Assembly: GCA_040005235.1 (NCBI GenBank)
Contig: JBDTZG010000100.1
Location: 1 to 13,775 of the forward strand
Length of the DNA: 13,775 nucleotides
Reading direction: 5' to 3'
DNA from: Acidobacteriota bacterium
GTDB lineage: Bacteria > Acidobacteriota > Thermoanaerobaculia > Multivoradales > UBA5704
Both the position numbers and the translations under genes were made by a program. Shown here in pieces: positions 92-13,775 of the stretch (the first letter of the stretch is position 1; each line of letters begins with the position of its first letter). The notes below the pieces were generated by a model. That model ran no database searches and was not told the origin of the DNA. It saw only the letters and a list, made by a program, of their open reading frames with translations.

Positions 92-904
92 ATGTCCACC
101 TCTGCGTTCGGCGGTTACGAAGGCCTCGGCGTCACGCGGCACGGTGTCTTCGTGTTGCTCGGTGTGGTCGTCGCCACGGTCCTTTACCTGCGCGCTGCGC
201 GGCGGGCGGGCCGGTTGGACGACGACCATCTCGCGGTGCTCGCCGGTGCATTGATCGGCGGGGTGCTGTTCGCGAAGCTCGGGGTGGTCTGGCGGTACCT
301 GGGAGACGGCGCGGGGCATTCGCTCGCGGATCTCGCGTTGCGCGGCGGCCAGAGCGTGCTCGGCGGTTTGGCGGGGGCCTACCTTGGGGCGCTCGGAATC
401 AAGCGCATCCTTGGAATGCGCCGCTCGACCGGCGAGCTTTTCGCGGCGCCCGTGGCGCTCGGAATCGCGATCGGCCGGGTCGGCTGCCTCCTCACCGAGC
501 TTCCGGGCCGGCCGGCGGATCTGCCGTGGAGCGTTACGGTCGACGCGGCGCGGGCGGCTTCGATCCCGGGCTTTCCCGTGGCTTGGATCGGCCGGCCGCT
601 CCATCCGTCGTTCGCCTATGAGATCGCGTTTCACCTTGCGGCGTTCGTGTTGCTGCTTCGGCTGGCGCGCGATCGGGAATGGGCGCCCGATCTGTTCAAG
701 GTCTATCTGGCGATCTATGCGCCGGTTCGATTCCTGTTGGAATGGACCCGCGCGAATCCGCCTATCGCATTGGGCCTGTCGGGCTCGCAATGGTTTCTAA
801 TCCCGTCGATGATCCTGCTCGGCGGCTGGTGGTGGCGGCGCTTCCAGCGCCCTCAAGTTCTCAGATTGATTGCCATCGAGGCAGTGGGGGAGAGAAGATC
901 ATGA
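92..904 (+). CDS. Prolipoprotein diacylglyceryl transferase (Lgt) family protein, divergent paralog, 270 aa
   Basis: Multi-pass hydrophobic protein with Lgt motifs in order: GGQSVLGG (cf. GGMSFHGG), IGRVGC..E..G, LPW, HPSFAYE, RFLLEWTR, GLSGSQW. Its stop overlaps the next start (ATGA 901-904). Confidence 0.88.
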   Translation: MSTSAFGGYEGLGVTRHGVFVLLGVVVATVLYLRAARRAGRLDDDHLAVLAGALIGGVLFAKLGVVWRYLGDGAGHSLADLALRGGQSVLGGLAGAYLGALGIKRILGMRRSTGELFAAPVALGIAIGRVGCLLTELPGRPADLPWSVTVDAARAASIPGFPVAWIGRPLHPSFAYEIAFHLAAFVLLLRLARDREWAPDLFKVYLAIYAPVRFLLEWTRANPPIALGLSGSQWFLIPSMILLGGWWWRRFQRPQVLRLIAIEAVGERRS

Positions 905-1326
905 CGACCGAAGAGACGCCGGGCGGGCTGCCGAATCGTCCGCCAATTGACCTGCAGGATCCGCCGCAGAACATCCCGCCGAGCGACCCGGCGGTCCACC
1001 CTCCGGGGATTCTGCCCCCTTTGCCGGAGCGGCGTGCCTGGCCCTGGGCGCTTCTGTTGGCCATTGCTCATCAAGCGGCTACGGGGTTGGGCTTCGCTGC
1101 GCTGAACAGCAACCAAGAGGTGCTCAACCTGTTCTTCTTTCTCATGGTCGGGCTCGTCCCTCTCGCCTTTATTCTCGGGCTCGTGCTGATTGCGCGTAAA
1201 CGCTCTTTTCCGGGACGGGTCTTGATGTTTGGAGCGCTCTATTCCGTTGCGCTCGTCGCGCTGGAGCTCGCTGTCGCCGCGGGGGTATGCATCTTCGCGT
1301 TCTCGAAGCCCGGATCTTTTCACTGA
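901..1326 (+). CDS. Small membrane protein, 141 aa: Pro-rich N-tail, ~3 TM helices, single Cys in the last helix (AAGVC)
   Basis: 3' part of ORF 679..1326. ATG at 901 overlaps the upstream stop and follows a purine-rich GGGGGAGAG. Its stop overlaps the next start (TGATG 1324-1328). Confidence 0.8.
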   Translation: MTTEETPGGLPNRPPIDLQDPPQNIPPSDPAVHPPGILPPLPERRAWPWALLLAIAHQAATGLGFAALNSNQEVLNLFFFLMVGLVPLAFILGLVLIARKRSFPGRVLMFGALYSVALVALELAVAAGVCIFAFSKPGSFH

Positions 1327-2894
1327 TGGCAACCGCACCCTCCGGCATGCCGCTCCGCGGCGATCGGCTCCACCGCTACGTCACGGCGTTCTGCCCGCAT
1401 TGCCACGTCGAGCAGCCCGACCGGCCGCTCGCGCAGGTCCGCCGTTTGGCCGGCTACCTCGCGGAAGAGGACGGCCGGATTTACTTGATTCGCGGCTGCC
1501 CGGAGCACGGTAGGGTGCGCACGCTCTACGACGAGTCAGCCGAGATCCTCCGCTGGCTGGAGGAGTGGACCGCGCCGACCAAGCGCCACACCCCCGACCG
1601 GCCGGGCAATTACGATCCGATCCCTTCGGCCTACCTGCGCGGCCTGCCGGAGCTGCAGACCCAGCACACCTGCATTCTGCTCGAAGACGTCGAGCTCTCC
1701 TGCAACCTGTGCTGCCCGAATTGCTTCGCCGCCAGCTCGCCGCAGCTCCAGGGAGTGGTGCCGATCGACGAGGTGCTCGCCAACGTCGATGCCCGCCTGG
1801 CGCGCGAGGGGGGCCGGCTCGACGTCGTGATGCTCTCGGGGGGAGAACCCACGCTCCACCCGCAGCTTCTCCCGCTGCTTTCCGGCCTGCTCGCCCGGCC
1901 GATCGGCCGTATTTTGCTCAACTCGAACGGCATCGCGATCGCGCAGGACGACGCGTTGGTCGCGTTCCTCGAAAAGAATCACAAGCAGATCGAGGTCTAC
2001 CTTCAGTTCGACGGCCTTCGCGCCGAGACCCACCGCTACCACCGCGGCGCGGACTTGGGAAAGATCAAGGCGCGCGCGATCGAGCGGCTTTCTAAAGCCG
2101 GGGTATTTACGACGCTCACCATGACTGCCACGCTTGGGGTGAACGACGATGAGATCGGCGACGTGCTCCGGGTGGCGCTCGACACGCCGTTCGTCGGCGG
2201 CGTCTCGATCCAGCCGCAATTCGGCAGCGGCCGATCGACCCAGATCGATCCGCTCGATCGTCTGACCCACACGGGCACCCTCGCGCGTCTGGGACCACAG
2301 ACCGACGGCCTGGTCACCTGGCGCGATTTGACGGCGCTGCCGTGCAGCCATCCCCACTGTTGCAGCATCGGCTACCTGCTGCGCACGGATTCGGGCGACT
2401 GGCGTTCGCTCACTTCGATCGTCGGCGTCGAGACCCTCCGTTCGCACCTGGGGCTCGTAAGCAATCGGATCGTCGACCCGGAGCTGTCGGCCGAGCTGCG
2501 CAAGCTGGTCAAAGAAGCGTTTCTCGGCCTGTTCTCCGAATCGAGCTCGCTCGCCCAACCGGGGATCGGCGCGCTGTTCCGCGACGTCTGCACCGCCTGC
2601 GATCTCGGCCTGTCCACTCTTTCGCGCCTGGCGGGCGAAGCGCTCACCGGTCGCGGCGAGGCGTTCCGCCGGCTGGTCGGCGACCGGATCAAACGGATCA
2701 CGATCAAGCCGTTCATGGACATGAACACGATGATCGAAGAGCGCCTGATCCAATGTTGCGTTCACGTCGGAGCGGTGGGGGAGGATGCCGAGCACCAATG
2801 CGTGCCGTTCTGCGCCATCCAGGCCTGGAATCCGCTCAGCCGGACCAAGCTCGCGGAGCGCGCGGGGGCGCAACGAAAGGCCGCGCTGGCATGA
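1326..2894 (+). CDS. Radical SAM enzyme, Tes/GDGT-MAS (MJ0619)-like family, 522 aa
   Basis: N-terminal CPHC (1392) and CPEHG (1497) metal site; HTC; CxxxCxxC as CNLCCPNC (1701-1724); SGGEPTLHP; LNSNG; VYLQFDG; GVNDDEIG; CSHPHCC (2343-2363); C-terminal QCCVH and VPFC (2751-2813). Start placed at 1326 by TGATG coupling. Confidence 0.88.
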   Translation: MATAPSGMPLRGDRLHRYVTAFCPHCHVEQPDRPLAQVRRLAGYLAEEDGRIYLIRGCPEHGRVRTLYDESAEILRWLEEWTAPTKRHTPDRPGNYDPIPSAYLRGLPELQTQHTCILLEDVELSCNLCCPNCFAASSPQLQGVVPIDEVLANVDARLAREGGRLDVVMLSGGEPTLHPQLLPLLSGLLARPIGRILLNSNGIAIAQDDALVAFLEKNHKQIEVYLQFDGLRAETHRYHRGADLGKIKARAIERLSKAGVFTTLTMTATLGVNDDEIGDVLRVALDTPFVGGVSIQPQFGSGRSTQIDPLDRLTHTGTLARLGPQTDGLVTWRDLTALPCSHPHCCSIGYLLRTDSGDWRSLTSIVGVETLRSHLGLVSNRIVDPELSAELRKLVKEAFLGLFSESSSLAQPGIGALFRDVCTACDLGLSTLSRLAGEALTGRGEAFRRLVGDRIKRITIKPFMDMNTMIEERLIQCCVHVGAVGEDAEHQCVPFCAIQAWNPLSRTKLAERAGAQRKAALA

Positions 2895-3301
2895 GTGATT
2901 CGAACGAAGTCCCCTCTCCAATGGAGAACGAAATCAACCCGGCGCTGGCCGCTGCGCGCCGGGCGCGGGAAGAGCAGGCGCTCCGCGCGATCGAGCCGCC
3001 GCTGCGACCCCCGGCGGCCCCGCCCGGCGCCACGCCGCTGATCGAAGACCCGTTCCGCCTCTGCACCTACGCGACGCTGGTCGCCCTTGCCTGGCTGTTC
3101 AGCCCGCCGGTCGTCCTCGCGATTTGCGCGATTCTCGGTTTCGTCGCCTATGCCAAGGCGCTCCGCGCCGGGCTTAAACGCAGCCGCTGTCTGCTGCGCG
3201 ATACGCGGTTGACGCTGGTCTATCTGGGGGTTCTCGCGGTGATGGCGTTGACCGTGATCGGCCTTCGGGTTGCGGAATCGTGTGGCTGGCGTGTTCCGTA
3301 G
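2891..3301 (+). CDS. Small membrane protein, 136 aa, Pro/Ala-rich N-tail, DPFRLC and RSRCLLRDTRL motifs
   Basis: 3' part of ORF 2342..3301. ATGA overlap with the radical SAM stop (2891-2894); about three hydrophobic segments. Confidence 0.8.
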   Translation: MSDSNEVPSPMENEINPALAAARRAREEQALRAIEPPLRPPAAPPGATPLIEDPFRLCTYATLVALAWLFSPPVVLAICAILGFVAYAKALRAGLKRSRCLLRDTRLTLVYLGVLAVMALTVIGLRVAESCGWRVP

Positions 3302-3317: not shown

Positions 3318-5318
3318 TCATTTGGCCACCTTGCGCTCCCGCACCGCGCTCACCCAGACGTAGACGCAAAGCGCGAGGAAGAGCAGCGCCGAGACGGACT
3401 GCGATACCGGATCGTTGTCATAGAACGGCAGCTTGATCTTGTCCTCCGAATACCAGGGGAACAAGCGGAACGCCGCGCCGAACACGCCGCCGAGGGCACC
3501 TCCCGCCATCAGACCCGAGGCGATGATCACGCCTCGCTCGCGCATCGACCGACCGCTCTCGCCGCCCACGCTGCGCGAGCGCTTCTCGATGAAGTGGGCG
3601 AGGAAGCCGCCGACCAGGGCGGGGGAGTTCAGCTCCAACGGCAGGTACATGCCCAGGGCGAAGATCAGCGCCGGGACGCCGAGCATCTCCATCGCGAGCG
3701 CGATCATCGCGCCCGCGCCGAACAGGATGTAGGCGATCGGCTGGTGGCTCATGAAGCCTTCGACCAGCGCTTTCATGATCGAGGCCTGCGGCGAGACGAG
3801 CACTTGGCGCGGATCGCCCGGTATCGCCTCGCCGAACTGGAACGCCTTGGCGAGCAGCATGATGGTGAGCGCAACGGTGATCGCCGAGACGAACACGCCT
3901 AAGAACTTCACCTTCTCCTGGGTGGCGGGAGTCGAGCCGAGCCAGTAGCCGGTTTTCAAGTCGGTGATCGTCTGCCCCGAGACCGAAAGCGCGGTGCAGA
4001 CGACGCCCGCGATCGCCATGACGAAGAACATGCCGGTGGTGCCGGTGAGGCCGAAGCGGAGCAGCACGACGGAGGAGATGATGATCGTCAGCATGGTCAT
4101 GCCGGAGACCGGATTCCGCGCCGTGGTGGCGATCGCGTTGGCCGCCACCGAGGCGAAGAAGAACGAAAAGAGAAGCGTGAGCCCAAGGCCGATCACCACG
4201 ACCAGCAGCGAGGCCCCTAGCGAGTTGAAGAAGATCCCCGCGGCAAGAGCCGAGACGATCACTCCGGCAAGCATGATCCCCACCGAGATGTCGCGGTCGG
4301 TGCGCTCCTGGCTCGCATCTTCGCCCTTCCTAAACGCGCGGGCCGCGATCGAGAACGAGCCGACCACGATCGGCAGCGATTTGATGATTCCGATGATTCC
4401 CGCGGTCGCGATCGCGCCGACCCCGATGAACCGCACGTAGCCGCGGAAGATCTCGTTGGCGGACATCTCGGCGATCGCCTTGGTCCCCGGATAGACCACG
4501 TCGGGGAAATGGCGGCCGATCATCCAGATCAACGGCACCAGCACCAGGTTGGACACCACGCCCCCGGCGCACAGGATCATCGAGGAGCGCAGGCCCATCA
4601 CGTAGCCGAGGCCGAGGATGAACGCGATCGCGTCGAACCGAAGCACCGCCTTGGCCTTGTCGCCGATCGATTTCACCACCCCGATGAACTGGAAGTCGAG
4701 GGTCTCCTTCCACACCTGAAAGGTGGTGACGAAGAAGTCATAGACCGCGGCGATTCCCGTCGCCTGGAGCAGCAGCGCCGCCTGCGATCCCCCCTTCTCT
4801 CCCGTCACCAGCACCTCGGTGATGGCGGTTGCCTCCGGGTAGGGGAATTTGCCGTGCATCTCGTGCACGAAATATCGACGCAGGGGAATCAAGAACAACA
4901 CGCCGAGCGCGCCGCCGGCCAGGCAGATGAACGTCGTCTGCACCGGATGGGGGTCGAGATTCAAGATATAGAGGGCGGGCAGGGTGAAAATCGCGCCCGC
5001 GACCATCGCGCCCGAGGTGCCGCCGATGCCCGACATGATGACGTTTTCGAGCACCGTCGACCGCCGCGAATAGACCCGCGCCAAGCCGATCGCCAGAATC
5101 GAGATGGGGATCGACGCCTCCATCACCTGGCCGACCTTCAACCCCGAATACGCCGAGGCGACGGTAAACAAGATACAGAGCGCCAGGCCCCAGCCGACCG
5201 ACCGCCAGGTCGCCTCCGGCGGAGCCGAGGTCGCGGGAACCATCGGCGCATACGTCTCGCCGGGGGCGAGCGGTAGGTAGGCGTTCTCCGGAAGAGACTT
5301 CGATTCGGGAGCGTCCAT
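3318..5318 (-). CDS. OPT-family oligopeptide transporter, 666 aa
   Basis: YSGLKVG, SIPISIL, ENVI, IFTLPAL, IPLRRYF, YPEATA, NPVSGMT, DLKTGYWLGSTP, GMYLPL and IASGLMAGG motifs; many TM helices. Start MDAPES at 5318 has a strong RBS (AGAGGAGG). The longer ORF extension to 5795 overlaps the next gene. Confidence 0.95.
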   Translation of the reverse strand: MDAPESKSLPENAYLPLAPGETYAPMVPATSAPPEATWRSVGWGLALCILFTVASAYSGLKVGQVMEASIPISILAIGLARVYSRRSTVLENVIMSGIGGTSGAMVAGAIFTLPALYILNLDPHPVQTTFICLAGGALGVLFLIPLRRYFVHEMHGKFPYPEATAITEVLVTGEKGGSQAALLLQATGIAAVYDFFVTTFQVWKETLDFQFIGVVKSIGDKAKAVLRFDAIAFILGLGYVMGLRSSMILCAGGVVSNLVLVPLIWMIGRHFPDVVYPGTKAIAEMSANEIFRGYVRFIGVGAIATAGIIGIIKSLPIVVGSFSIAARAFRKGEDASQERTDRDISVGIMLAGVIVSALAAGIFFNSLGASLLVVVIGLGLTLLFSFFFASVAANAIATTARNPVSGMTMLTIIISSVVLLRFGLTGTTGMFFVMAIAGVVCTALSVSGQTITDLKTGYWLGSTPATQEKVKFLGVFVSAITVALTIMLLAKAFQFGEAIPGDPRQVLVSPQASIMKALVEGFMSHQPIAYILFGAGAMIALAMEMLGVPALIFALGMYLPLELNSPALVGGFLAHFIEKRSRSVGGESGRSMRERGVIIASGLMAGGALGGVFGAAFRLFPWYSEDKIKLPFYDNDPVSQSVSALLFLALCVYVWVSAVRERKVAK

Positions 5319-5459
5319 CCGTCCTCCTCTTCGATTCTGGGGTCTAAAGTCGCGACAGTGTAACCCAGGCGGCCGGGAGCGAGGCCGCCGGCCGGAAACG
5401 AAAGAAGTGTGTGTCTGGTCAAGCTTCAGTGCTTTCTCGCAGGTATGATGAGAGCGCCA

Positions 5460-7727
5460 ATGTGCAATCACGTCTACACCGCGAACTACAAGAGGCTGCC
5501 CGCTACGTTGGGCGTCAACTGCCCGGTCGCTGCGCTCTACGAGAAAGCGCAAGCGACCGGGCCGGTCGGGCCTTTGTCGGTTCTTCCGATTGACGCCCAC
5601 GGCCTGTGCCTCTTCCATAGCCGGGAGGTCGAGTGGAAGCGGGACCACGACTTCGAGGGGCACTTCCTTCAACTCGTGCGGATATACGAAGCGGTGCCCG
5701 AGGCCAAGTACTACGATTTTGCGGAATTCGCCTTCGTCGGCGGTCGCACCCGGCCTTTCGCGCTTCGGGTCGCCGATACGGTCTTTCTCCGGCAAGCCTT
5801 TTTCGTGGCGGCCTCATTCCTCGAACCGCTCATTCTCGAAGGAGTCGAGTTTCGGGACGGCGCCGATTTCCGCCAAGCCATTTTCGTCGGCGATTTGCGG
5901 GTCGCCAAGGCTCGCTTCGGCGGCCTCACTCTGAGTGGCGCCGAGCTCCGACGGCTTGCTTGGTTCACCCAGGTTGAGATCGTGAGCTTCGCAGTCTTGG
6001 ACAACGCGAAATTCACCGGCACGGCACTCGGTTCCGTGGTCAAGTTTGAGGACTCGCGGTTTGACGCGATCACCGATTTCTCAGGGGCGATTTTTGCCCT
6101 TGGAGGTGAATCGACGGCGATGTTTCTGCGGACTCGATTCGAGAATTCCGTGGACTTTACCCGCTCCCGGTTCCATTGCCAGGTCGTTTTCCAAGAAGTT
6201 ACCTTTGCGGATTCTGCCGAATTTATCGATACCTTGTTCGATGCCGTCAATTCCTCGGCACGATACGTAGGCGGTGCGGTCGAGTTCAACCAAATCGAGG
6301 TCACGGCGCGTTCGGTCCTGCGGTTCGAGAGCACCGATCCCCAGCAGAAACTCTTTCACCACAGCGTACAAATGAGCTTCAAAGAGACCCCGGCCGGGCT
6401 GATCCGCTTCGAGAACGCCAACTTCAGGAATCTGAGCGCGGCTTCCCAGGATCGCCTGAAAGCGCTCGCCCGGTTGGGCTTTGTCGAGATCGGCTCGGGC
6501 TGCATCAAGTACCGGTTTCAGACCCCGATCACGAAGATCGATCTTGGCGAAGGCAATACTCCCCTGATCATCAAGTTGTGCGAGACCTTCACGAGTTATT
6601 TCACGGTGAGCAATGGGCTCAATCTGGGGTTTGAGATTGTGGAGCGGACCCCCACCGCGGTCCACTATTTCTTCTTTACGGACGAGGACATCTCCGAGGC
6701 GACTTTTGAAGAGCGCTTGGCGCAAACGGCGCAGCAGATGTGGAGCCTGCTTTCGGTCCGTTCCGAGGAGCAGCTCCTGGCGCTCGAAGCGCCGTCTGCG
6801 CTCGTGCCTCCAGCGGAAAAGGAGAATGCGACAATCCACGCCGTCGATTGCGTGACAGCTTTGATGGGGCTCCTCTTCGGCGTAGGAATCCGGATCGCCT
6901 GCGGGAAATGGAAAGAAGCCGATACCCGCGCCCTACGACGCACCGTCCTTTTCAAAGAGGAAGGCCCGGAGATTGCCCAGGGGCTTCATCGCGTTTTGGT
7001 GGACAGGTATACGGGGGCCTCTCTCTTTCATATCAGCGGTCAGCAGAATGCGGGGCTGCCGTCCAAGCTCATTGAGCCGCCCGCGCCGAGAGCTACTCCT
7101 CGGCTGCTCTTCGTTGCTGTTGACACAAATCGGAGAGATCGCCTACGCCTCGATTTCGAAGTGAAGGCCGTTGAAGAGGCTCTGCGATCGGCGGGCCATG
7201 AGGATCTCGTCGCGCTCGAACATTGTTGGGCGGCGACGCTCCTGGACCTGCAGCACGCGCTGCTGAGGTATCGACCGGCCCTGCTGCATTTCAGCGGTCA
7301 TGGAACCCCTTCCGGGGAACTGGTGATGGAGAGGGACTCGCAGGTCCCCGCCGAAAGCCGCCGCCCTGAAACCCACGACTCGCGCCCCGCCGAGACACTG
7401 GCTCGCATGCTCGGAGCCATAGAGGGCTCCCAAGTTCGATGCGTAGTCCTGAACGCCTGCTTCTCTGAAGTCCAAGCCGCCGGGGTTGCCCAACACGCTG
7501 ATTGCGTCATCGGCCTTTCCGCCGAGGTCCGAGATTCGGCGGCGATCGAATTCGCACGCGGGTTTTACAGCGCGCTAGCTTTTGGGCAAAGTGTCCAGGC
7601 GGCTTTCGACCTGGGGGTCGCCGATGTGAAATCCCAGAACGATGCCGGGCTGTATCGGCTCATCTCGACCAAAGCGGACCCGCGGACGGTTAAGTTAGTT
7701 GAGGTCGGCGAACGAAAGCCCGGCTGA
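5460..7727 (+). CDS. Pentapeptide-repeat protein with C-terminal CHAT (caspase-like) domain, ~755 aa
   Basis: N-terminal Cys/His motif (CNH...CPV...CLFH); repeats such as ADFRQAIF, TDFSGAIF, VDFTRSRF, AEFIDTLF; C-terminal LRLDFEV, LLHFSGHG, VVLNACFS, AAIEFARGFYSAL. Start uncertain (5445, 5448 or 5460); TATGAT at 5444-5449 favours 5460. Confidence 0.85.
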   Translation: MCNHVYTANYKRLPATLGVNCPVAALYEKAQATGPVGPLSVLPIDAHGLCLFHSREVEWKRDHDFEGHFLQLVRIYEAVPEAKYYDFAEFAFVGGRTRPFALRVADTVFLRQAFFVAASFLEPLILEGVEFRDGADFRQAIFVGDLRVAKARFGGLTLSGAELRRLAWFTQVEIVSFAVLDNAKFTGTALGSVVKFEDSRFDAITDFSGAIFALGGESTAMFLRTRFENSVDFTRSRFHCQVVFQEVTFADSAEFIDTLFDAVNSSARYVGGAVEFNQIEVTARSVLRFESTDPQQKLFHHSVQMSFKETPAGLIRFENANFRNLSAASQDRLKALARLGFVEIGSGCIKYRFQTPITKIDLGEGNTPLIIKLCETFTSYFTVSNGLNLGFEIVERTPTAVHYFFFTDEDISEATFEERLAQTAQQMWSLLSVRSEEQLLALEAPSALVPPAEKENATIHAVDCVTALMGLLFGVGIRIACGKWKEADTRALRRTVLFKEEGPEIAQGLHRVLVDRYTGASLFHISGQQNAGLPSKLIEPPAPRATPRLLFVAVDTNRRDRLRLDFEVKAVEEALRSAGHEDLVALEHCWAATLLDLQHALLRYRPALLHFSGHGTPSGELVMERDSQVPAESRRPETHDSRPAETLARMLGAIEGSQVRCVVLNACFSEVQAAGVAQHADCVIGLSAEVRDSAAIEFARGFYSALAFGQSVQAAFDLGVADVKSQNDAGLYRLISTKADPRTVKLVEVGERKPG

Positions 7728-7738
7728 TTCGGTCCAGC

Positions 7739-8524
7739 TCAGATCTCCACCTCGCCCTCCAAATAGAATACGCAGTCACCCTCCAGCTCGACGCGACCCC
7801 CAACCAACCGACAAACGACCTCTCCGCCTCGACGCGAGGCCTGGAAGGCGTGAAACTCAGTTTTGTTCAGGCGCTTGGCCCAATAGGGCGCCAACATGCA
7901 GTGCGCGGCGCCGGTCACCGGATCTTCCGGGATCCCCTTGGCCGGGGCGAAGTAGCGGCTGATGAAGTCGTAGGCTTCGTCGCCCGGCGCGGTCACGATC
8001 ACCCCGGGGCGGTCCATGCGGGCAATCGCCGGCGGGTCAGGGGAGAGTTTGCGCACGGCTTGCGCGTCGGAAAGCACTGCCATGTAATTGAAGGCGTTGG
8101 CGAGGACCTCGATCGGCTCGACGCCCAGCGCTTCGCTGAGCCCGGGTGGTGCCGGGACCGGCTCGGAGGGCCGGGAGGGGAAGTCCATGACGTAACCCGC
8201 ATCCGTCCGTTTCACCGTCAGGGGCCCGCTTAGCGTGTGAAAAACCACCCGCCTGCGTTCCGGCTCCAGGCGCTCCATGACCACCGCTGCGCTGGCCAGC
8301 GTCCCATGGCCGCAGAGCGGCACCTCGGTGGCCGGCGTGAACCAACGGAGGGAATAGTCGCCGCCTTCCGGCACCAGGAAAGCCGTCTCGGAGAGATTGT
8401 TTTCGGCCGCGATGGCCAGCAGGGTCTCGTCCGCCGGGAAGCCGGCCATCGGCATCACGGCGGCGGGATTTCCCGCGAATCGGCGGGTGGTGAAGGCGTC
8501 CACCTGGAAGATCGGTATGCGCAT
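7739..8524 (-). CDS. PhzF family phenazine-biosynthesis-like isomerase/epimerase, 261 aa
   Basis: QVDAFT...GNPAAV, ENNLSETAF, LRWFTP.TEVPLCGHGTLA, SRYFAP..GIPEDPVTGAAH. Confidence 0.95.
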   Translation of the reverse strand: MRIPIFQVDAFTTRRFAGNPAAVMPMAGFPADETLLAIAAENNLSETAFLVPEGGDYSLRWFTPATEVPLCGHGTLASAAVVMERLEPERRRVVFHTLSGPLTVKRTDAGYVMDFPSRPSEPVPAPPGLSEALGVEPIEVLANAFNYMAVLSDAQAVRKLSPDPPAIARMDRPGVIVTAPGDEAYDFISRYFAPAKGIPEDPVTGAAHCMLAPYWAKRLNKTEFHAFQASRRGGEVVCRLVGGRVELEGDCVFYLEGEVEI

Positions 8525-10350: not shown

Positions 10351-10373
10351 GGGCCGGAGTTGGACTCCGGCCC
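10351..10373. repeat. Perfect 10-bp inverted repeat
   Basis: GGGCCGGAGT-TGG-ACTCCGGCCC. Confidence 0.75.
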
Positions 10374-10518
10374 TGGATGCGGGGTGTTGGACGCTGAAGT
10401 TTTGTTTCCTTTTCGTGGCGCTCGCAGCGGGATGTTTTCCGTCGCGATCCGGGTGCTCACGCAGGCGGAGTGGTGGCTCCCCTTGCGGCGGGTTTCGGAG
10501 ACGAGGGTGGTCGCCTGG

Positions 10519-10553
10519 TTCGGCAGCGGTCGCGACGCTGCTGCCGAAGTTTT
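10519..10553 (+). terminator. Possible intrinsic terminator
   Basis: TTCGGCAGC...GCTGCCGAA 9-bp stem followed by GTTTT; the U-tract is short. Confidence 0.35.
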
Positions 10554-10677
10554 CCCGAGCAAAGTTTACTTCCTTGCCCCGGAAGGTGCGAGCATACTCC
10601 GCGCGAGTTCGTCCGACCAGCCGCCGGAAATCCCGTCGCGCCGCAAACGAACCCCGACACCCCGAGAGGAGAGGAAG

Positions 10678-11076
10678 ATGGAGCACGCCAAGGGCGAATT
10701 CGACGTTAAGGTGAACCCGCTGCCGCTGGCCGGTCCGGCGGAGGACGCGACCCTCGGCCGCATGTCGATCGAGAAAGAATTTCACGGCGATCTCGTCGGC
10801 ACCGGCAAGGGGCAGATGCTCACCGCGGGCGCGGCGGAAGGATCGGGGGTCTACGTCGCGATCGAAACGGTGACCGCCACCCTCGCCGGGCGGAAAGGCA
10901 CGTTCGCGCTCTACCACCGTGGGATCATGACCCGCGGCACGCCGGACCTTGCGGTGAACGTGGTGCCCGATTCCGGCACCGGCGAGCTGGCGGGGATCTC
11001 CGGCACTCTTCACATTCTGATCGAGGGAGGCAAGCACGGGTACGACTTCGAGTACTCGCTGCCGGCGCTACCGTAG
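10678..11076 (+). CDS. DUF3224 family protein, 132 aa
   Basis: AKGEFDVK, GRMSIEKEFHGDLVG, YVAIETV, GRKGTFALYH, VVPDSGTGELAGISG, Y.FEY motifs; RBS GAGGAGAGGA before ATG 10678. Confidence 0.9.
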   Translation: MEHAKGEFDVKVNPLPLAGPAEDATLGRMSIEKEFHGDLVGTGKGQMLTAGAAEGSGVYVAIETVTATLAGRKGTFALYHRGIMTRGTPDLAVNVVPDSGTGELAGISGTLHILIEGGKHGYDFEYSLPALP

Positions 11077-11266
11077 CCACCCCGAGCCGGTTCTCGGATC
11101 CGCCGTCGTACCTGAGGGCCAGCGAAGGCTCTAAAGTTTTGGGTGTTCGTGCCCAGGCGGAAAGAGACGGACATCGGAATCCGTCGCCCCGCCTCTCGGT
11201 GCCGGTCGCGTCGGTTTGCGCAGAGGATTCAGCTATGCTGTTACGCCAACCGCCAGGAGATACGAC

Positions 11267-13021
11267 ATGCATTCAGGTATTCGCGCTTTCGCCTTGGTCT
11301 CGACGTTTGCCGTGCTGTCCGCCTGTCCGCCGAAGGACACCGCTCCGCCGGCCGCGGAAGCTCCGAAGACCACCAAGGTTGAAAGGGTGGCGGACCCGGT
11401 GGCTTGCGACAACTTGACCCCGCCACCCACCGCGCAGTTTCCCGCGGGCTTCGACTATCCGCAATCTTCCGGCACGATTCAATCTTGGGTCACGCCGGGA
11501 CAGGGCCCTCGGATGCGCTTTCACGCCTATTGCCTGTTCGCCGGTTTGAACCAAGCCGCCAACGCGGCGAAGGACCCCACCTGGCGGACCTGGGGGACTT
11601 CGACCCAGGCCTTCCCCTACCAGTACAACCCCTGGAAACCTTCGCTGGCCGAAGGGGGAGGGGGCGGCGCGCAGGCCGCGGCCGAGGTCCTGCGTCCGGT
11701 GACGCTCAACGCCAAGAACCAGGCCAACGCGGCGGTCGGCGGGGTGGGCGCGATCAACAACCCGGCTCCGATCTATGGCGTGAATCAAGCGATCGTCAAC
11801 AACCGCGCCTATAAGGACTGTCTACAGAGGATCCCCGGCACCAATCCGCAGCTCTACAACCTCAAGGATGGCCAGAATTTCCAGAGCAACGGCGACATCA
11901 TGGTGGCGGCCGTGAGCTACAACTCGGCGGCGCTCAAGAACATCCTCGGAACGGGCTTGTTCAACGCCGCCTTGCTCGACACCAAGCTGCCGCCGAAGCC
12001 GACGAGCCAGTCGACGAGCATTCAGCCGTTTCCCGCCACGTCGATCGTCCTCAAGGTCATGCTTTGGCCGGTCGCGGGGGGCGGCCCGACCTACACAAGC
12101 GTCACGGCCTTGCCCATCTGGGATTGGGATTCCAACAAACCGGGCTCGCCGGCCGACGGCAAGTACGCCGGCTACGAGATGCAGAACCTGTGGACCCGGG
12201 CGGTCGCGATCTCCAGCGGCCCACCGGGGCCCACGGAGCAGAAGCGGGTGCAGTTCCTCTATGGCGTGCTCGACCCCAACGGCAAGCCGCTCGGCCCGAA
12301 TTTCTACGACGGTGATCGGGTCACCCTCGATCGCTTCTACAGCAAGAAGTATTCACCGACCGATCTGGCCTCGCTGTCGACCTGCGACCGCGCGATCCTC
12401 GACGCCTCGGCCTATTGGACCTACAACCGCGCGTTTCAAGCGGGCGACTCGCTGGCGCTGGTCGCCATGCACATGATCACCAAAGAGCAGTCGGATTGGA
12501 CCTTCCAGTCGGCCTGGTGGCATCCGGACGCTTTCGCCTGCACCAACCCGTCCAGCAGCCGTTACTGCCAGCATCGTCCCAACGCGGTGCCCGGCGGCGA
12601 CACCACGTACAAGAACTACATGATCACCACCACCTACGGCACGACCCAGCAGCAGGGCAACTCCAACTACTACGCCCCGCCGGGAACCAAAGGACCGGTG
12701 TGGCCGGTCGCCTACAACCCCTATATCGAGCTGGCCGCCTCGCACCCAATCACCACCAACTGCATGAACTGCCACCACCGTGCCGCCTGGCCGCCGTTGA
12801 ACCCCGACCAGAAACCGGACGCCGGCCGCGCGTCGAGCTATCTCCAGGCGAACCCGCCGAATCCGAACGCGCTCGAGACCTTCCAATTCAACAACCCGAT
12901 CTTCAACGGCCTCACCATAGTCGATTCGAATTGGGCGGTCTCCGACCGGGCTGGGTATTCGACCGGGGCTACCGGCGCCACCGGAGAGGCGCCGCCACCG
13001 GCGCCGGAGCCGAAAAAGTAG
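11267..13021 (+). CDS. Lipoprotein with single C-terminal c-type heme motif, 584 aa
   Basis: RBS AGGAGA (11255-11260); signal peptide with lipobox LSA|C20; CMNCH at 12761-12775; Asn/Pro/Thr/Gly-rich exported-protein composition. Confidence 0.85.
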   Translation: MHSGIRAFALVSTFAVLSACPPKDTAPPAAEAPKTTKVERVADPVACDNLTPPPTAQFPAGFDYPQSSGTIQSWVTPGQGPRMRFHAYCLFAGLNQAANAAKDPTWRTWGTSTQAFPYQYNPWKPSLAEGGGGGAQAAAEVLRPVTLNAKNQANAAVGGVGAINNPAPIYGVNQAIVNNRAYKDCLQRIPGTNPQLYNLKDGQNFQSNGDIMVAAVSYNSAALKNILGTGLFNAALLDTKLPPKPTSQSTSIQPFPATSIVLKVMLWPVAGGGPTYTSVTALPIWDWDSNKPGSPADGKYAGYEMQNLWTRAVAISSGPPGPTEQKRVQFLYGVLDPNGKPLGPNFYDGDRVTLDRFYSKKYSPTDLASLSTCDRAILDASAYWTYNRAFQAGDSLALVAMHMITKEQSDWTFQSAWWHPDAFACTNPSSSRYCQHRPNAVPGGDTTYKNYMITTTYGTTQQQGNSNYYAPPGTKGPVWPVAYNPYIELAASHPITTNCMNCHHRAAWPPLNPDQKPDAGRASSYLQANPPNPNALETFQFNNPIFNGLTIVDSNWAVSDRAGYSTGATGATGEAPPPAPEPKK

Positions 13022-13063: not shown

Positions 13064-13090
13064 CTGCCCGGATCTTTCCGGAGGATGGAT

Positions 13091-13775
13091 ATGGCTATTC
13101 AGAAGGTGGGCGTCCTCGGCTGCGGCCTGATGGGCGCCGGGATCGCCGAGATCGCGGCGAAGGCGGGCCTGGCAACGGTGGTGCGCGAAGTGAACCAGGG
13201 GTTTCTGGACAAGGGGCTCGGCCGGCTTCGCGGCTCGCTCGACAAGGCGGTGGAAAAGGGCAAGCTCGACGCGGCGGCGCGCGACGCGGCGCTCGCGAAT
13301 TTGAGCGGAACGACCGAATTCTCCGATCTCGCCGACTGCGACCTGGTGGTCGAGGCGATCGTCGAAAACGTCGAGGAGAAGAAGAAGACCTTCGCGGCGC
13401 TCGACGAGATCGTCAAGCCCGAAGCGATCTTCGCCTCCAACACCTCGTCGCTCACCATCACCCAGCTCGCGATGAGCACGAAGCGGCCGGACCGCTTCGT
13501 CGGGCTCCATTTCTTCAACCCGGTGCCGGTGATGAAGCTGGTCGAGGTGGTGCGCACGATCCTCACCTCGGACGAGTGCGTAGAGGCGGCGTTTGAGTTT
13601 GCCCGGAAGGTCGGCAAAGAGCCGATCGCAGCGCGCGACAATTCGGGCTTCATCGTCAACCGGCTGCTCGTCCCCTACCTTCTCGACGCGATCCGCGCGC
13701 TCGAAGAGGGGGTGGGTTCGGTCGAGGACATCGACAAGGGGATGCAGCTCGGCTGCGGCTACCCGATGGGGCCGT
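13091..13775 (+). CDS. hbd: 3-hydroxybutyryl-CoA / 3-hydroxyacyl-CoA dehydrogenase (3' truncated by window edge; absent from the ORF track)
   Basis: My translation: MAIQKVGVLGCGLMGAGIAE (GxGxMG), DLVVEAIVEN, FASNTSSL, VGLHFFNPVPVMKLVEVV, GFIVNRLL, DIDKGMQLGCGYPMGP. RBS GGAGGA at 13080-13085. Confidence 0.95.
   Translation, partial: MAIQKVGVLGCGLMGAGIAEIAAKAGLATVVREVNQGFLDKGLGRLRGSLDKAVEKGKLDAAARDAALANLSGTTEFSDLADCDLVVEAIVENVEEKKKTFAALDEIVKPEAIFASNTSSLTITQLAMSTKRPDRFVGLHFFNPVPVMKLVEVVRTILTSDECVEAAFEFARKVGKEPIAARDNSGFIVNRLLVPYLLDAIRALEEGVGSVEDIDKGMQLGCGYPMGP

Follow-up and report, generated by a model that had tools for sequence, protein, structure and literature searches.

What might a bacterium want with a second protein of the Lgt family, and why should the gene for it be tied into an operon with a radical SAM enzyme resembling GDGT-MAS/Tes and with two very small membrane proteins? 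This is the question raised by one end of the window, by which we mean the whole stretch of 13,775 nucleotides of acidobacterial DNA that was analysed here. Between positions 92 and 3301, four co-directional genes on the plus strand follow one another with an overlap at every junction: a 270-residue Lgt paralog (92..904), which is the second LGT-family gene of the genome; a 141-residue membrane protein (901..1326), the 'mid' mini-protein; a 522-residue radical SAM enzyme of the GDGT-MAS/Tes superfamily (1326..2894); and a second mini-protein, P0004, also a membrane protein, of 136 residues (2891..3301). The three stop/start overlaps claimed by an earlier, sequence-only reading of this DNA can all be read in the sequence, again on the plus strand: ATGA at 901..904 between genes 1 and 2, TGATG at 1324..1328 between genes 2 and 3, and ATGA at 2891..2894 between genes 3 and 4. 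On translation, all four frames are free of internal stops, and the GC3 of the four genes, at 0.73-0.85 against a GC of 0.643 for the window, is consistent with coding sequence. A convergent OPT transporter gene, ending at 3318, forms the 3' boundary of the operon, and at the other end the window starts where the contig starts, so that the operon promoter and upstream context are out of view in this genome. What the operon encodes could well be a membrane-bound two-enzyme machine together with its own small protein clients, although we would not go so far as to call this probable.

The first gene had been described as an atypical Lgt, and the description turns out to be apt. Its product matches the LGT family of Pfam (PF01790) over residues 12-243 with 99.2 bits, where the cut-off is 24.9, and scores only 47.2 bits against the NCBIfam equivalog TIGR00544, under the cut-off of 118.9; in addition, a second, higher-scoring LGT gene (155.3 bits) lies on another contig, C18. 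Judged by these profile scores, the C18 copy is very probably the housekeeping Lgt and gene 1 is very probably not the cell's housekeeping lipoprotein transferase. The same arrangement is seen elsewhere, since exactly two LGT genes were found in each of five genomes from five phyla and, as in the window's genome, it is the lower-scoring one that adjoins the radical SAM gene. The obvious reference is E. coli Lgt (b2828; PF01790), which shares the Pfam domain over nearly the whole length of gene 1; the paralog departs from it in lacking one residue after position 146 and in its shorter periplasmic head, as well as in being a second copy, under the equivalog cut-off and always paired with a radical SAM enzyme. 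When the two are aligned, G142, R143, G145, E151, G154, H196, Y235, R239, E243 and R246 are kept, and three positions are changed (Y26H, H103L and N146C). Gene 1 keeps 10 of the 13 residues of an Lgt motif (Y26, H103, G104, G142, R143, G145, N146, E151, G154, Y235, R239, E243 and R246) that was proposed in 10.1101/2025.03.27.645668, the available part of which describes H103 as variable and N146 as Cys in distant Lgts. The paralog appears, from the alignment, to keep the phosphatidylglycerol-binding and catalytic residues of Lgt. Throughout the subfamily of gene 1 two of these changes, Y26H and N146C, are invariant, and residues H17 and C132 of gene 1 are invariant in 38 of its 38 members. N146C as a mark of the paralog had nevertheless to be dropped, because the other Lgt of this genome carries N146C too and the change alone is not diagnostic.

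What, then, of the radical SAM enzyme? Pfam recognises PF04055 and PF23545 (HMPTM zinc ribbon) in gene 3, and the sole PDB match by sequence is 7tol (E 5.4e-33). An AF2 model (pLDDT 86.7), when searched with Foldseek, finds 7tom (E 6.6e-32) and 7tol (E 3.6e-31) with TM scores of 0.71-0.75 over some 550 alignment columns, the next match being SkfB at a TM of 0.34; as modelled, gene 3 has the four-domain GDGT-MAS fold of 7TOL over its full length. In an alignment of 39 sequences, the conserved ligand columns (C23, C26, C58 and H61; H114, C116, C340 and C345; C126, C130 and C133; M464, C477, C478 and C496) provide ligand sets for all four Tes-type centres, that is, 3Cys+His, 3Cys+His, the CX3CX2C radical SAM site and 3Cys+Met, where ligands were assigned to centres by pattern rather than by superposition. 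These are the features of Tes/GDGT-MAS itself (MJ0619; 7TOL, 7TOM), for which the portion of PMC13459092 available describes a rubredoxin-like 3Cys+His site, an N-terminal cluster, the radical SAM cluster and a Met-ligated C-terminal cluster. The differences are that identity to gene 3 is about 21-22%, and that gene 3 is bacterial and encoded with an Lgt paralog and mini-proteins.

The sequence-only reading had called this enzyme Tes/GDGT-MAS-like and, while the likeness stands in the full-length fold and the four ligand sets, a place within the Tes clade does not. Gene 3 scores 139.4 bits against the Tes profile NF045702, well under the cut-off of 450 and the lowest among the clades tested, and in two trees of 63 rows (FastTree and IQ-TREE), with MJ0619 not included and a single archaeal sequence, from Nitrososphaera and itself under the Tes cut-off at 334 bits, the 23-row clade of the window and the 20-row Nitrososphaera clade each lie on one side of a branch. 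By the criterion that the sequence-only reading had set for itself, this separation amounts to a refutation of membership of the Tes clade, though not of Tes-like chemistry. The best NCBIfam match of gene 3 is the TrsS radical SAM (seleno)protein, whose profile, NF045646, spans nearly its whole length at 184.5 bits, likewise well under the cut-off (490); TrsS differs in that the in-frame TGA is absent from gene 3, and the literature that we found holds TrsS as a table entry only, with no function stated. Mss, the membrane-spanning lipid synthase of Thermotoga, is a further radical SAM enzyme, one for which a role in joining lipid tails has been proposed; compared here by description only, it is just remotely related to Tes according to the available part of PMC13159169.

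Is the pairing of the two enzymes a peculiarity of this genome? It is not: the Lgt paralog travels with the Tes-fold radical SAM enzyme, both in inheritance and in gene order. Among the 240 loci fetched, 160 have an Lgt-family gene next to that for the radical SAM enzyme, and these 160 come from 17 named phyla; the remainder comprises 47 loci without an Lgt gene within 2.5 kb and 33 that are cut by contig ends. Within the orthogroup set the two genes adjoin in 77 of 80 loci, the three misses being contig ends; a second set, reaching 27-35% identity, has an Lgt neighbour in 69 of 80; and the most Tes-like set has one in 14 of 80 (absent in 45, undecided in 21). Moreover, among 41 related genomes the orthologs of the Lgt paralog and of the radical SAM enzyme occur in the same eight. 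That the four genes form one unit had been proposed from the overlaps, and the linkage proves to be kept across phyla, far more widely than was then suggested. No flanking gene beyond the cassette is conserved across phyla, and our literature search found no description of an Lgt-radical SAM pairing.

The two enzymes are also predicted to occur as one protein. P0205 and P0227 have PF01790, PF23545 and PF04055 in a single chain, all three domains are carried by 49 of the 55 database matches to the N-terminal 330 residues of P0227, and 49 of 50 fused proteins share a Cys-Cys motif in their linker, all of these fusions being known from predicted proteins only. None of 80 metagenome loci was fused (58 have adjacent but separate genes and 22 the radical SAM gene only), and locus L271 is unfused as well. 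A Planctomycetota genome (G113) that was considered as a genomic fusion was rejected, with a stop after its Lgt gene and a frameshift inside its radical SAM gene.

The two remaining genes had been read as Cys-bearing membrane proteins, which is indeed what they encode, with one cysteine in gene 2 and four in gene 4. The mid protein matches nothing in Pfam or NCBIfam. Its N-terminus is rich in Pro and is followed by three hydrophobic helices, a basic loop and a final helix that closes with AAGVC-IFAF; its single Cys, within AAGVCIF, is predicted to lie on the periplasmic side. Of the 77 loci in which Lgt is a neighbour, 56 have an open reading frame of the same build at the same position, and the 56 can be aligned with one another. 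By a hydrophobicity threshold the Cys is embedded in a helix in 51 of 57 mid proteins, and in the other six it is visible by eye in the alignment; position -2 is Gly in 49 of the 51, and 36 of the 51 have a bulky residue (V, L, F or I) at -1, unlike the canonical lipobox. The mid protein evolves fast, as can be judged from the mere two of 80 loci in which tblastn matched its sequence, and a profile search recovers few distant members (10 of 80 loci in the second set and 3 of 80 in the third), so that its spread was judged by a structural screen. The gap between the Lgt and radical SAM genes lacks a mid gene in 21 of the 77 linked loci, including most Gemmatimonadota and a relative from the same genus (L028); two of these 21, L075 and L082 from Nonomuraea, have a mid-like gene upstream of Lgt instead.

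P0004 follows the radical SAM gene in 59 of 80 loci by tblastn, has no Pfam match and falls into 'hypothetical' clusters only in the ESM Atlas. Of its four cysteines, C58 and C100 are shared by all 36 aligned homologs, and D53, P54, T62, W68, Y87, G94, Y111 and L112 are likewise invariant; both conserved cysteines are predicted to be on the cytoplasmic face; an AF2 model (pLDDT 76, pTM 0.39) has helices at 54-70, 72-92 and 105-130. A P0004 profile found nothing in five mycobacterial genomes (best E 0.17). Across the wider collection, small membrane proteins with G-x-C near the outer end of a helix recur in several clades and none is universal. A strict automatic screen for a small same-strand open reading frame with a Cys in its C-terminal helix was positive in 84 of the 160 loci linked to Lgt but in just 2 of the 47 that lack an Lgt neighbour, with examples from Bacillota, Bacteroidota, Elusimicrobiota, Planctomycetota and Chloroflexota, and with a tandem pair at locus L278. 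At locus L060, neither mini-protein was found by the screens used. That only about half of the Lgt-linked loci are positive in the strict screen, and that neither mini-protein is universal, tells against the explanation preferred below.

How might these parts work together? The reading that we prefer, and regard as a serious possibility rather than a probability, is the dedicated S-lipidation of a mini-protein, coupled to radical chemistry on lipid tails. In its favour we count the linkage and co-occurrence of the two enzyme genes, the paralog status of gene 1, the predicted fusions, the residues of Lgt and the metal ligands of Tes that are retained, the kinship between the substrate of Tes and the lipid donor of Lgt, the recurrent small proteins with a helix Cys, and an ICMT-family gene in one clade. 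The Lgt paralog would transfer diacylglyceryl from phosphatidylglycerol to the thiol of the single mid Cys; this acceptor would sit near the outer end of the last helix, in the G-x-C motif and with a basic loop before it, a layout resembling a signal peptide with its lipobox. The mid protein would stay uncleaved, since the bulky residue at -1 would be a poor fit for signal peptidase II. The radical SAM enzyme may bind to the Lgt paralog from the cytoplasmic side, perhaps with P0004 as its membrane partner. Working as Tes does, with SAM, its radical SAM cluster and the C-terminal cluster that has a Met ligand, it would remove hydrogen at the tip of a lipid tail and make a new bond there, which might close a macrocycle within the diacylglycerol or tie in a second tail; the lipid acted on could be phosphatidylglycerol, as the donor, or the lipid after its transfer. 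The active site of E. coli Lgt faces the periplasmic leaflet, whereas a radical SAM enzyme is necessarily cytoplasmic, so direct action of the two on the same lipid needs explanation. In 20 loci, all from one clade, an ICMT-family methyltransferase gene comes after the Lgt paralog, and eukaryotic ICMT methylates lipidated C-terminal cysteines. The most elaborate form of the proposal would have a private Lgt paralog lipidating an internal Cys of a dedicated, uncleaved mini-membrane-protein, after which the docked Tes-like radical SAM enzyme welds the tails, so that the protein would have a macrocyclic or bilayer-spanning lipid as its anchor, with variants across at least 17 phyla and with carboxyl-methylation by ICMT; as a complete package, we consider this unlikely.

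The sequence-only reading had offered two functional guesses, and of these a new lipid modification of a membrane protein seems, on the recurrence of the mini-proteins, to be the better fit. Bulk synthesis of membrane-spanning lipids is the weaker, because bacterial Tes homologs do not track the producers of diabolic or iso-diabolic acid: the available part of PMC13159169 reports such producers to be without Tes homologs, and gives homologs for only 3 of 14 acidobacteria with iso-diabolic acid. A rival reading would be a free-lipid pathway whose product is a modified glycerolipid of low abundance, for instance a derivative of phosphatidylglycerol that is macrocyclic, tail-linked or bilayer-spanning, and in which the Lgt paralog handles the lipid or passes it to a non-protein acceptor and the mini-proteins are scaffolds or regulators; this we judge somewhat unlikely, and it has to contend with the same mismatch between Tes homologs and diabolic-type producers. 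It would sit well with a radical SAM enzyme that has the complete Tes fold and Tes-type metal sites, with the fact that neither mini-protein is universal and with the conserved Cys-Cys motif that some fused forms have of their own, and also with the substrate of Tes, archaetidylglycerol, which is the archaeal counterpart of the lipid donor of Lgt and has a like glycerol headgroup (PMC13459092, in the part available). It nevertheless leaves unexplained both the recurrence of cysteine-tipped mini-proteins beside the pair and the retention of the thiol-transferase residues of Lgt. The distribution of the cassette, which is also found in mycobacteria, in Nanopelagicales MAGs and in gut bacteria with genomes of 1.4-1.6 Mb, is a further difficulty, as none of these is known to us for diabolic-type, tail-linked or spanning lipids.

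Could the mini-proteins instead be precursors of a RiPP-like peptide, modified by the radical SAM enzyme (for example, with a thioether at Cys), given a lipid by the Lgt paralog and released as a lipopeptide? We find this improbable. No conserved gene for a protease or an exporter accompanies the cassette, the mini-proteins are predicted to be multi-helix integral membrane proteins, the mid Cys is predicted to be periplasmic, away from the cytoplasmic radical SAM enzyme, and the whole-length structural match of that enzyme is to a lipid enzyme, with SPASM-type peptide maturases at a TM of 0.35 or less; to be set against this are the fast-evolving N-termini and conserved C-terminal Cys motif of the mini-proteins, the tandem pair of mini-protein genes at locus L278, the ICMT-family gene of one clade, and the more distant fold matches to SkfB, SuiB and a sactipeptide thioether synthase, radical SAM enzymes that act on peptides, over the core domain only. 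That a redundant housekeeping Lgt lies by chance beside an unrelated radical SAM enzyme or pterin methyltransferase is scarcely credible and is already contradicted by the conservation data, namely the adjacency in 160 loci of 17 named phyla, the co-occurrence in eight of eight genomes and the predicted fusions, even though some sources name the homologs '7,8-dihydro-6-hydroxymethylpterin dimethyltransferase', a name inherited from an early annotation of MJ0619, whose structure was deposited as the lipid enzyme GDGT-MAS, and the available text of 10.1101/2025.01.07.631728 discusses a second Lgt homolog of M. smegmatis (Y26H, N146C) as possibly redundant.

Why should any of this matter beyond one operon? 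Outside the most Tes-like clade, most of the radical SAM clades sampled are firmly tied to a second Lgt and in many cases have cysteine-tipped mini-proteins as well. Bacterial Tes homologs have been proposed as the makers of the branched tetraether lipids that serve as climate proxies, and we know of no demonstration of their function so far. The tie to a second Lgt and to mini-proteins points away from bulk membrane lipids and towards a joint reaction on a lipid derived from phosphatidylglycerol, carried out by a cassette that is a three- or four-gene unit; were the protein-lipidation reading true, this would be a new branch of bacterial lipoprotein biogenesis. It also furnishes a candidate role for the unexplained 'second Lgt' of many genomes, possibly including those of mycobacteria. 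Of particular interest here is MSMEG_5408, the second Lgt homolog of M. smegmatis, which is reported to have Y26H and N146C, like gene 1, and is treated as a possibly low-activity or redundant Lgt, a radical SAM partner going unmentioned in the available portion of 10.1101/2025.03.27.645668. M. smegmatis was not found among the best 80 cassette loci, and the literature on the locus tags neighbouring MSMEG_5408 yielded a zinc-starvation expression table only; the cassette itself is carried by many Mycobacteriaceae.

The four genes at 92-3301, within the contig's initial 13,775 bases, lie on one strand and overlap at every junction (ATGA at 901, TGATG at 1324 and ATGA at 2891, all on +), so the stop/start overlaps that had been claimed for all three are indeed to be read in the sequence. 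Third-position GC is raised in all four (0.73-0.85 vs a window GC of 0.643), and although the upstream side of the operon is lost at the contig end, its 3' side is closed by a convergent OPT oligopeptide transporter gene (Pfam; 3318-5330, -). At the heart of this operon are an Lgt paralog (gene 1, 92-904) and a radical SAM enzyme with a Tes fold (gene 3, 1326-2894), which together form a conserved and co-inherited unit. We screened loci of species-representative genomes, 80 in each of three sets, for an Lgt-family neighbour of the radical SAM gene. With the window's own enzyme as query (62-96% identity), 77 loci have such a neighbour, 0 lack one within 2.5 kb and 3 are undecided at contig ends; the corresponding figures are 69, 2 and 9 for a query from the closest sister cluster (extending to 27-35% identity), and 14, 45 and 21 for the most Tes-like representatives, a Nitrososphaera sequence included. 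Overall, the pair is present in 160 of 240 loci from 17 named phyla, and to that extent the gene linkage that the sequence-only reading wanted checked across phyla is conserved. Orthologs of both genes co-occur in the same 8 of 41 relatives of the window's genome; in one further relative that is 93% complete (G006), all that is found of the radical SAM gene is a 58-residue fragment at 86% identity, and this genome and another (G013) carry a second, more distant pair. In the literature searched, no paper on the pairing was found.

Sometimes the two partners are predicted to be a single protein. Two superfamily representatives, P0205 and P0227, have LGT, zinc ribbon and radical SAM domains in one chain, and the first 330 residues of P0227 matched 55 proteins, 49 of which have all three domains; of 50 fused proteins that were aligned, 49 retain a Cys-Cys pair in the linker, just past the LGT domain. 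These predicted LGT/HMPTM zinc ribbon/radical SAM fusions (P0205, P0227 and P0277-P0328) are 618-825 aa long, and some are named as coming from Tepidisphaeraceae and Verrucomicrobiota MAGs. Since no fusion was confirmed on DNA in the metagenome loci, the Planctomycetota genome G113 or locus L271, the evidence for fusion consists of predicted proteins. In G113, the radical SAM gene (L449, 2655-4075, -) is split across two frames by a frameshift or an assembly error, and a gene resembling gene 2 ('LLNAACFGAG', 2257-2658) follows it. In an Acidobacteriota MAG (L051), radical SAM-like sequence occurs twice, and a long ORF, in part out of frame, runs into an end like that of gene 4, which suggests a duplication or misassembly.

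Gene 1 (270 aa) belongs to the LGT family (PF01790, 99.2 bits) and scores under the NCBI Lgt equivalog cut-off (47.2 vs 118.9 bits); it is a paralog, because the genome holds a higher-scoring LGT gene (155.3 bits) on contig C18. Five genomes from five phyla have exactly two LGT genes each, and every time it is the lower scorer that adjoins the radical SAM gene. In alignment, gene 1 shares G142, R143, G145, E151, G154, H196, Y235, R239, E243 and R246 with E. coli Lgt and differs from it by Y26H, H103L and N146C, by the loss of one residue and by a head region that is shorter; all 38 of 38 subfamily members have H17 and C132. N146C alone does not mark the paralog, since the genome's other Lgt likewise has Cys at 146. 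A preprint gives the second M. smegmatis Lgt homolog (MSMEG_5408) both Y26H and N146C (10.1101/2025.03.27.645668), a combination that is the signature of the gene 1 subfamily, of which this homolog is a candidate member. Immediately upstream of the paralog, 11 mycobacterial loci encode a membrane protein (in L087, at 3968-4684) whose match to ZIP zinc transporters is weak (18 bits, under the Pfam cut-off); separately, a paper records ~9-fold repression in zinc starvation for the hypothetical protein MSMEG_5406, whose locus tag is two away from that of MSMEG_5408. A different companion comes after the paralog at L174 6127-7110 and in 19 other loci, in a clade of Elusimicrobiaceae, Kiritimatiellae and gut Alphaproteobacteria: a membrane methyltransferase of the ICMT family (PF04140), with a C-terminal extension that bears an 'NCPC...HGCPC' motif; the order in L174 is radical SAM gene, 72-aa one-helix Cys protein, Lgt paralog and ICMT, all overlapping.

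In gene 3 (522 aa), Pfam recognises a radical SAM domain together with an HMPTM zinc ribbon, and the sole PDB match to its sequence is GDGT-MAS (7tol, E 5.4e-33). Its AlphaFold2 model (pLDDT 86.7) matches 7tom/7tol over the whole chain (TM 0.71-0.75), the next structural match, SkfB, covering the core only (TM 0.34), and in a 39-sequence superfamily alignment the columns where the four Tes metal centres, as described in section 8 of PMC13459092, should have their ligands are conserved. Judged by its sequence, gene 3 is nevertheless not Tes: it reaches 139 bits vs a cut-off of 450 on the Tes model and 184.5 vs 490 on that of TrsS, cut-offs reached by 0 of 56 full-length superfamily representatives, and the window's clade has the lowest Tes-model scores among those tested. 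Clustering at 50% shows a tight family, with scores dropping from 721 to 473, 376 and ~225 bits, and its homologs are named in databases only as 'radical SAM protein' or, by inheritance, pterin methyltransferase. In FastTree and IQ-TREE trees of 63 sequences (near-duplicates removed at 72% identity), two clades are each set off by a well-supported branch: the window's super-clade, in which every one of 23 rows has an Lgt neighbour, and the clade with Nitrososphaera, in which 1 of 20 rows has such a neighbour, 12 have none and 7 are undecided. Membership of the Tes clade, as first proposed, is thus contradicted by model scores and by trees whose single archaeal row itself scores 334 bits, under the Tes cut-off.

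The unit is usually accompanied by cysteine-bearing mini-membrane-proteins, in the window genes 2 (901-1326) and 4 (2891-3301), neither of which matched a Pfam or NCBIfam family. Homologs of gene 4, modelled as three helices, lie 3' of the radical SAM gene in 59 of the 80 loci found with the window's enzyme and share ten invariant residues, C58 and C100 among them, both Cys being probably cytoplasmic by the positive-inside rule; its profile had no match in five cassette-bearing mycobacterial genomes. Gene 2 evolves fast (tblastn matches in only 2 of 80 loci), and in 56 loci the gap between the Lgt and radical SAM genes holds an ORF of its build. The N-terminus is variable and often rich in Pro, helices and a basic loop come next, and the last helix has [A/V/G]-G-x-C a few residues short of its outer end; as a variant in some Acidobacteriota loci, 'L-x-G-S-C' closes the first helix instead. 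Comparable small genes occur in cassettes of Brevibacillus, Mucilaginibacter, Elusimicrobiaceae, Chloroflexota and one Planctomycetota genome, and a strict automatic screen for a small Cys-bearing ORF was positive in 84/160 Lgt-linked vs 2/47 unlinked loci. The gap lacks the gene in 21 of 77 linked loci, and screens of locus L060 saw neither mini-protein. In a same-genus relative (G002), the gene is absent at L028 4275-4278, where the paralog stops 3 bases short of the radical SAM gene and the two flanking genes share 83-95% identity with their counterparts in the window. Mucilaginibacter pineti has tandem copies of a small Cys-tipped membrane protein after the radical SAM gene (L278, 4892-5152 and 5153-5419).

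What might the cassette do? Our tentative preference, held at a little short of even chances, is a joint reading in which the Lgt paralog would S-lipidate the G-x-C cysteine of a mini-protein and the radical SAM enzyme would, in the manner of Tes, abstract hydrogen from lipid tails of the same phosphatidylglycerol-derived unit and form a bond there. Geometry is a difficulty here, the Lgt active site being periplasmic and the radical SAM enzyme cytoplasmic, and the main rival, that the product is a free lipid, we consider somewhat less likely. Synthesis of a bulk membrane-spanning lipid, a pathway suggested by the sequence-only reading, is unlikely: Tes homologs, as reported in PMC13159169, do not track the producers of such lipids.

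Beyond the operon, Pfam identifies a PhzF-family protein (7739-8524, -), a DUF3224 protein (10360-11076, +) and a 3-hydroxyacyl-CoA dehydrogenase truncated where the window ends (13085-13774, +); neither these nor the OPT gene are kept beside the cassette in the other lineages examined. A 772-aa protein at 5409-7727 (+) has pentapeptide repeats (PF13576) and, at its C-terminus, a CHAT domain (PF12770), and a 601-aa ORF without a Pfam match (11216-13021, +) has an internal Met followed by hydrophobic '...FAVLSAC', which resembles a lipobox-bearing lipoprotein signal peptide.
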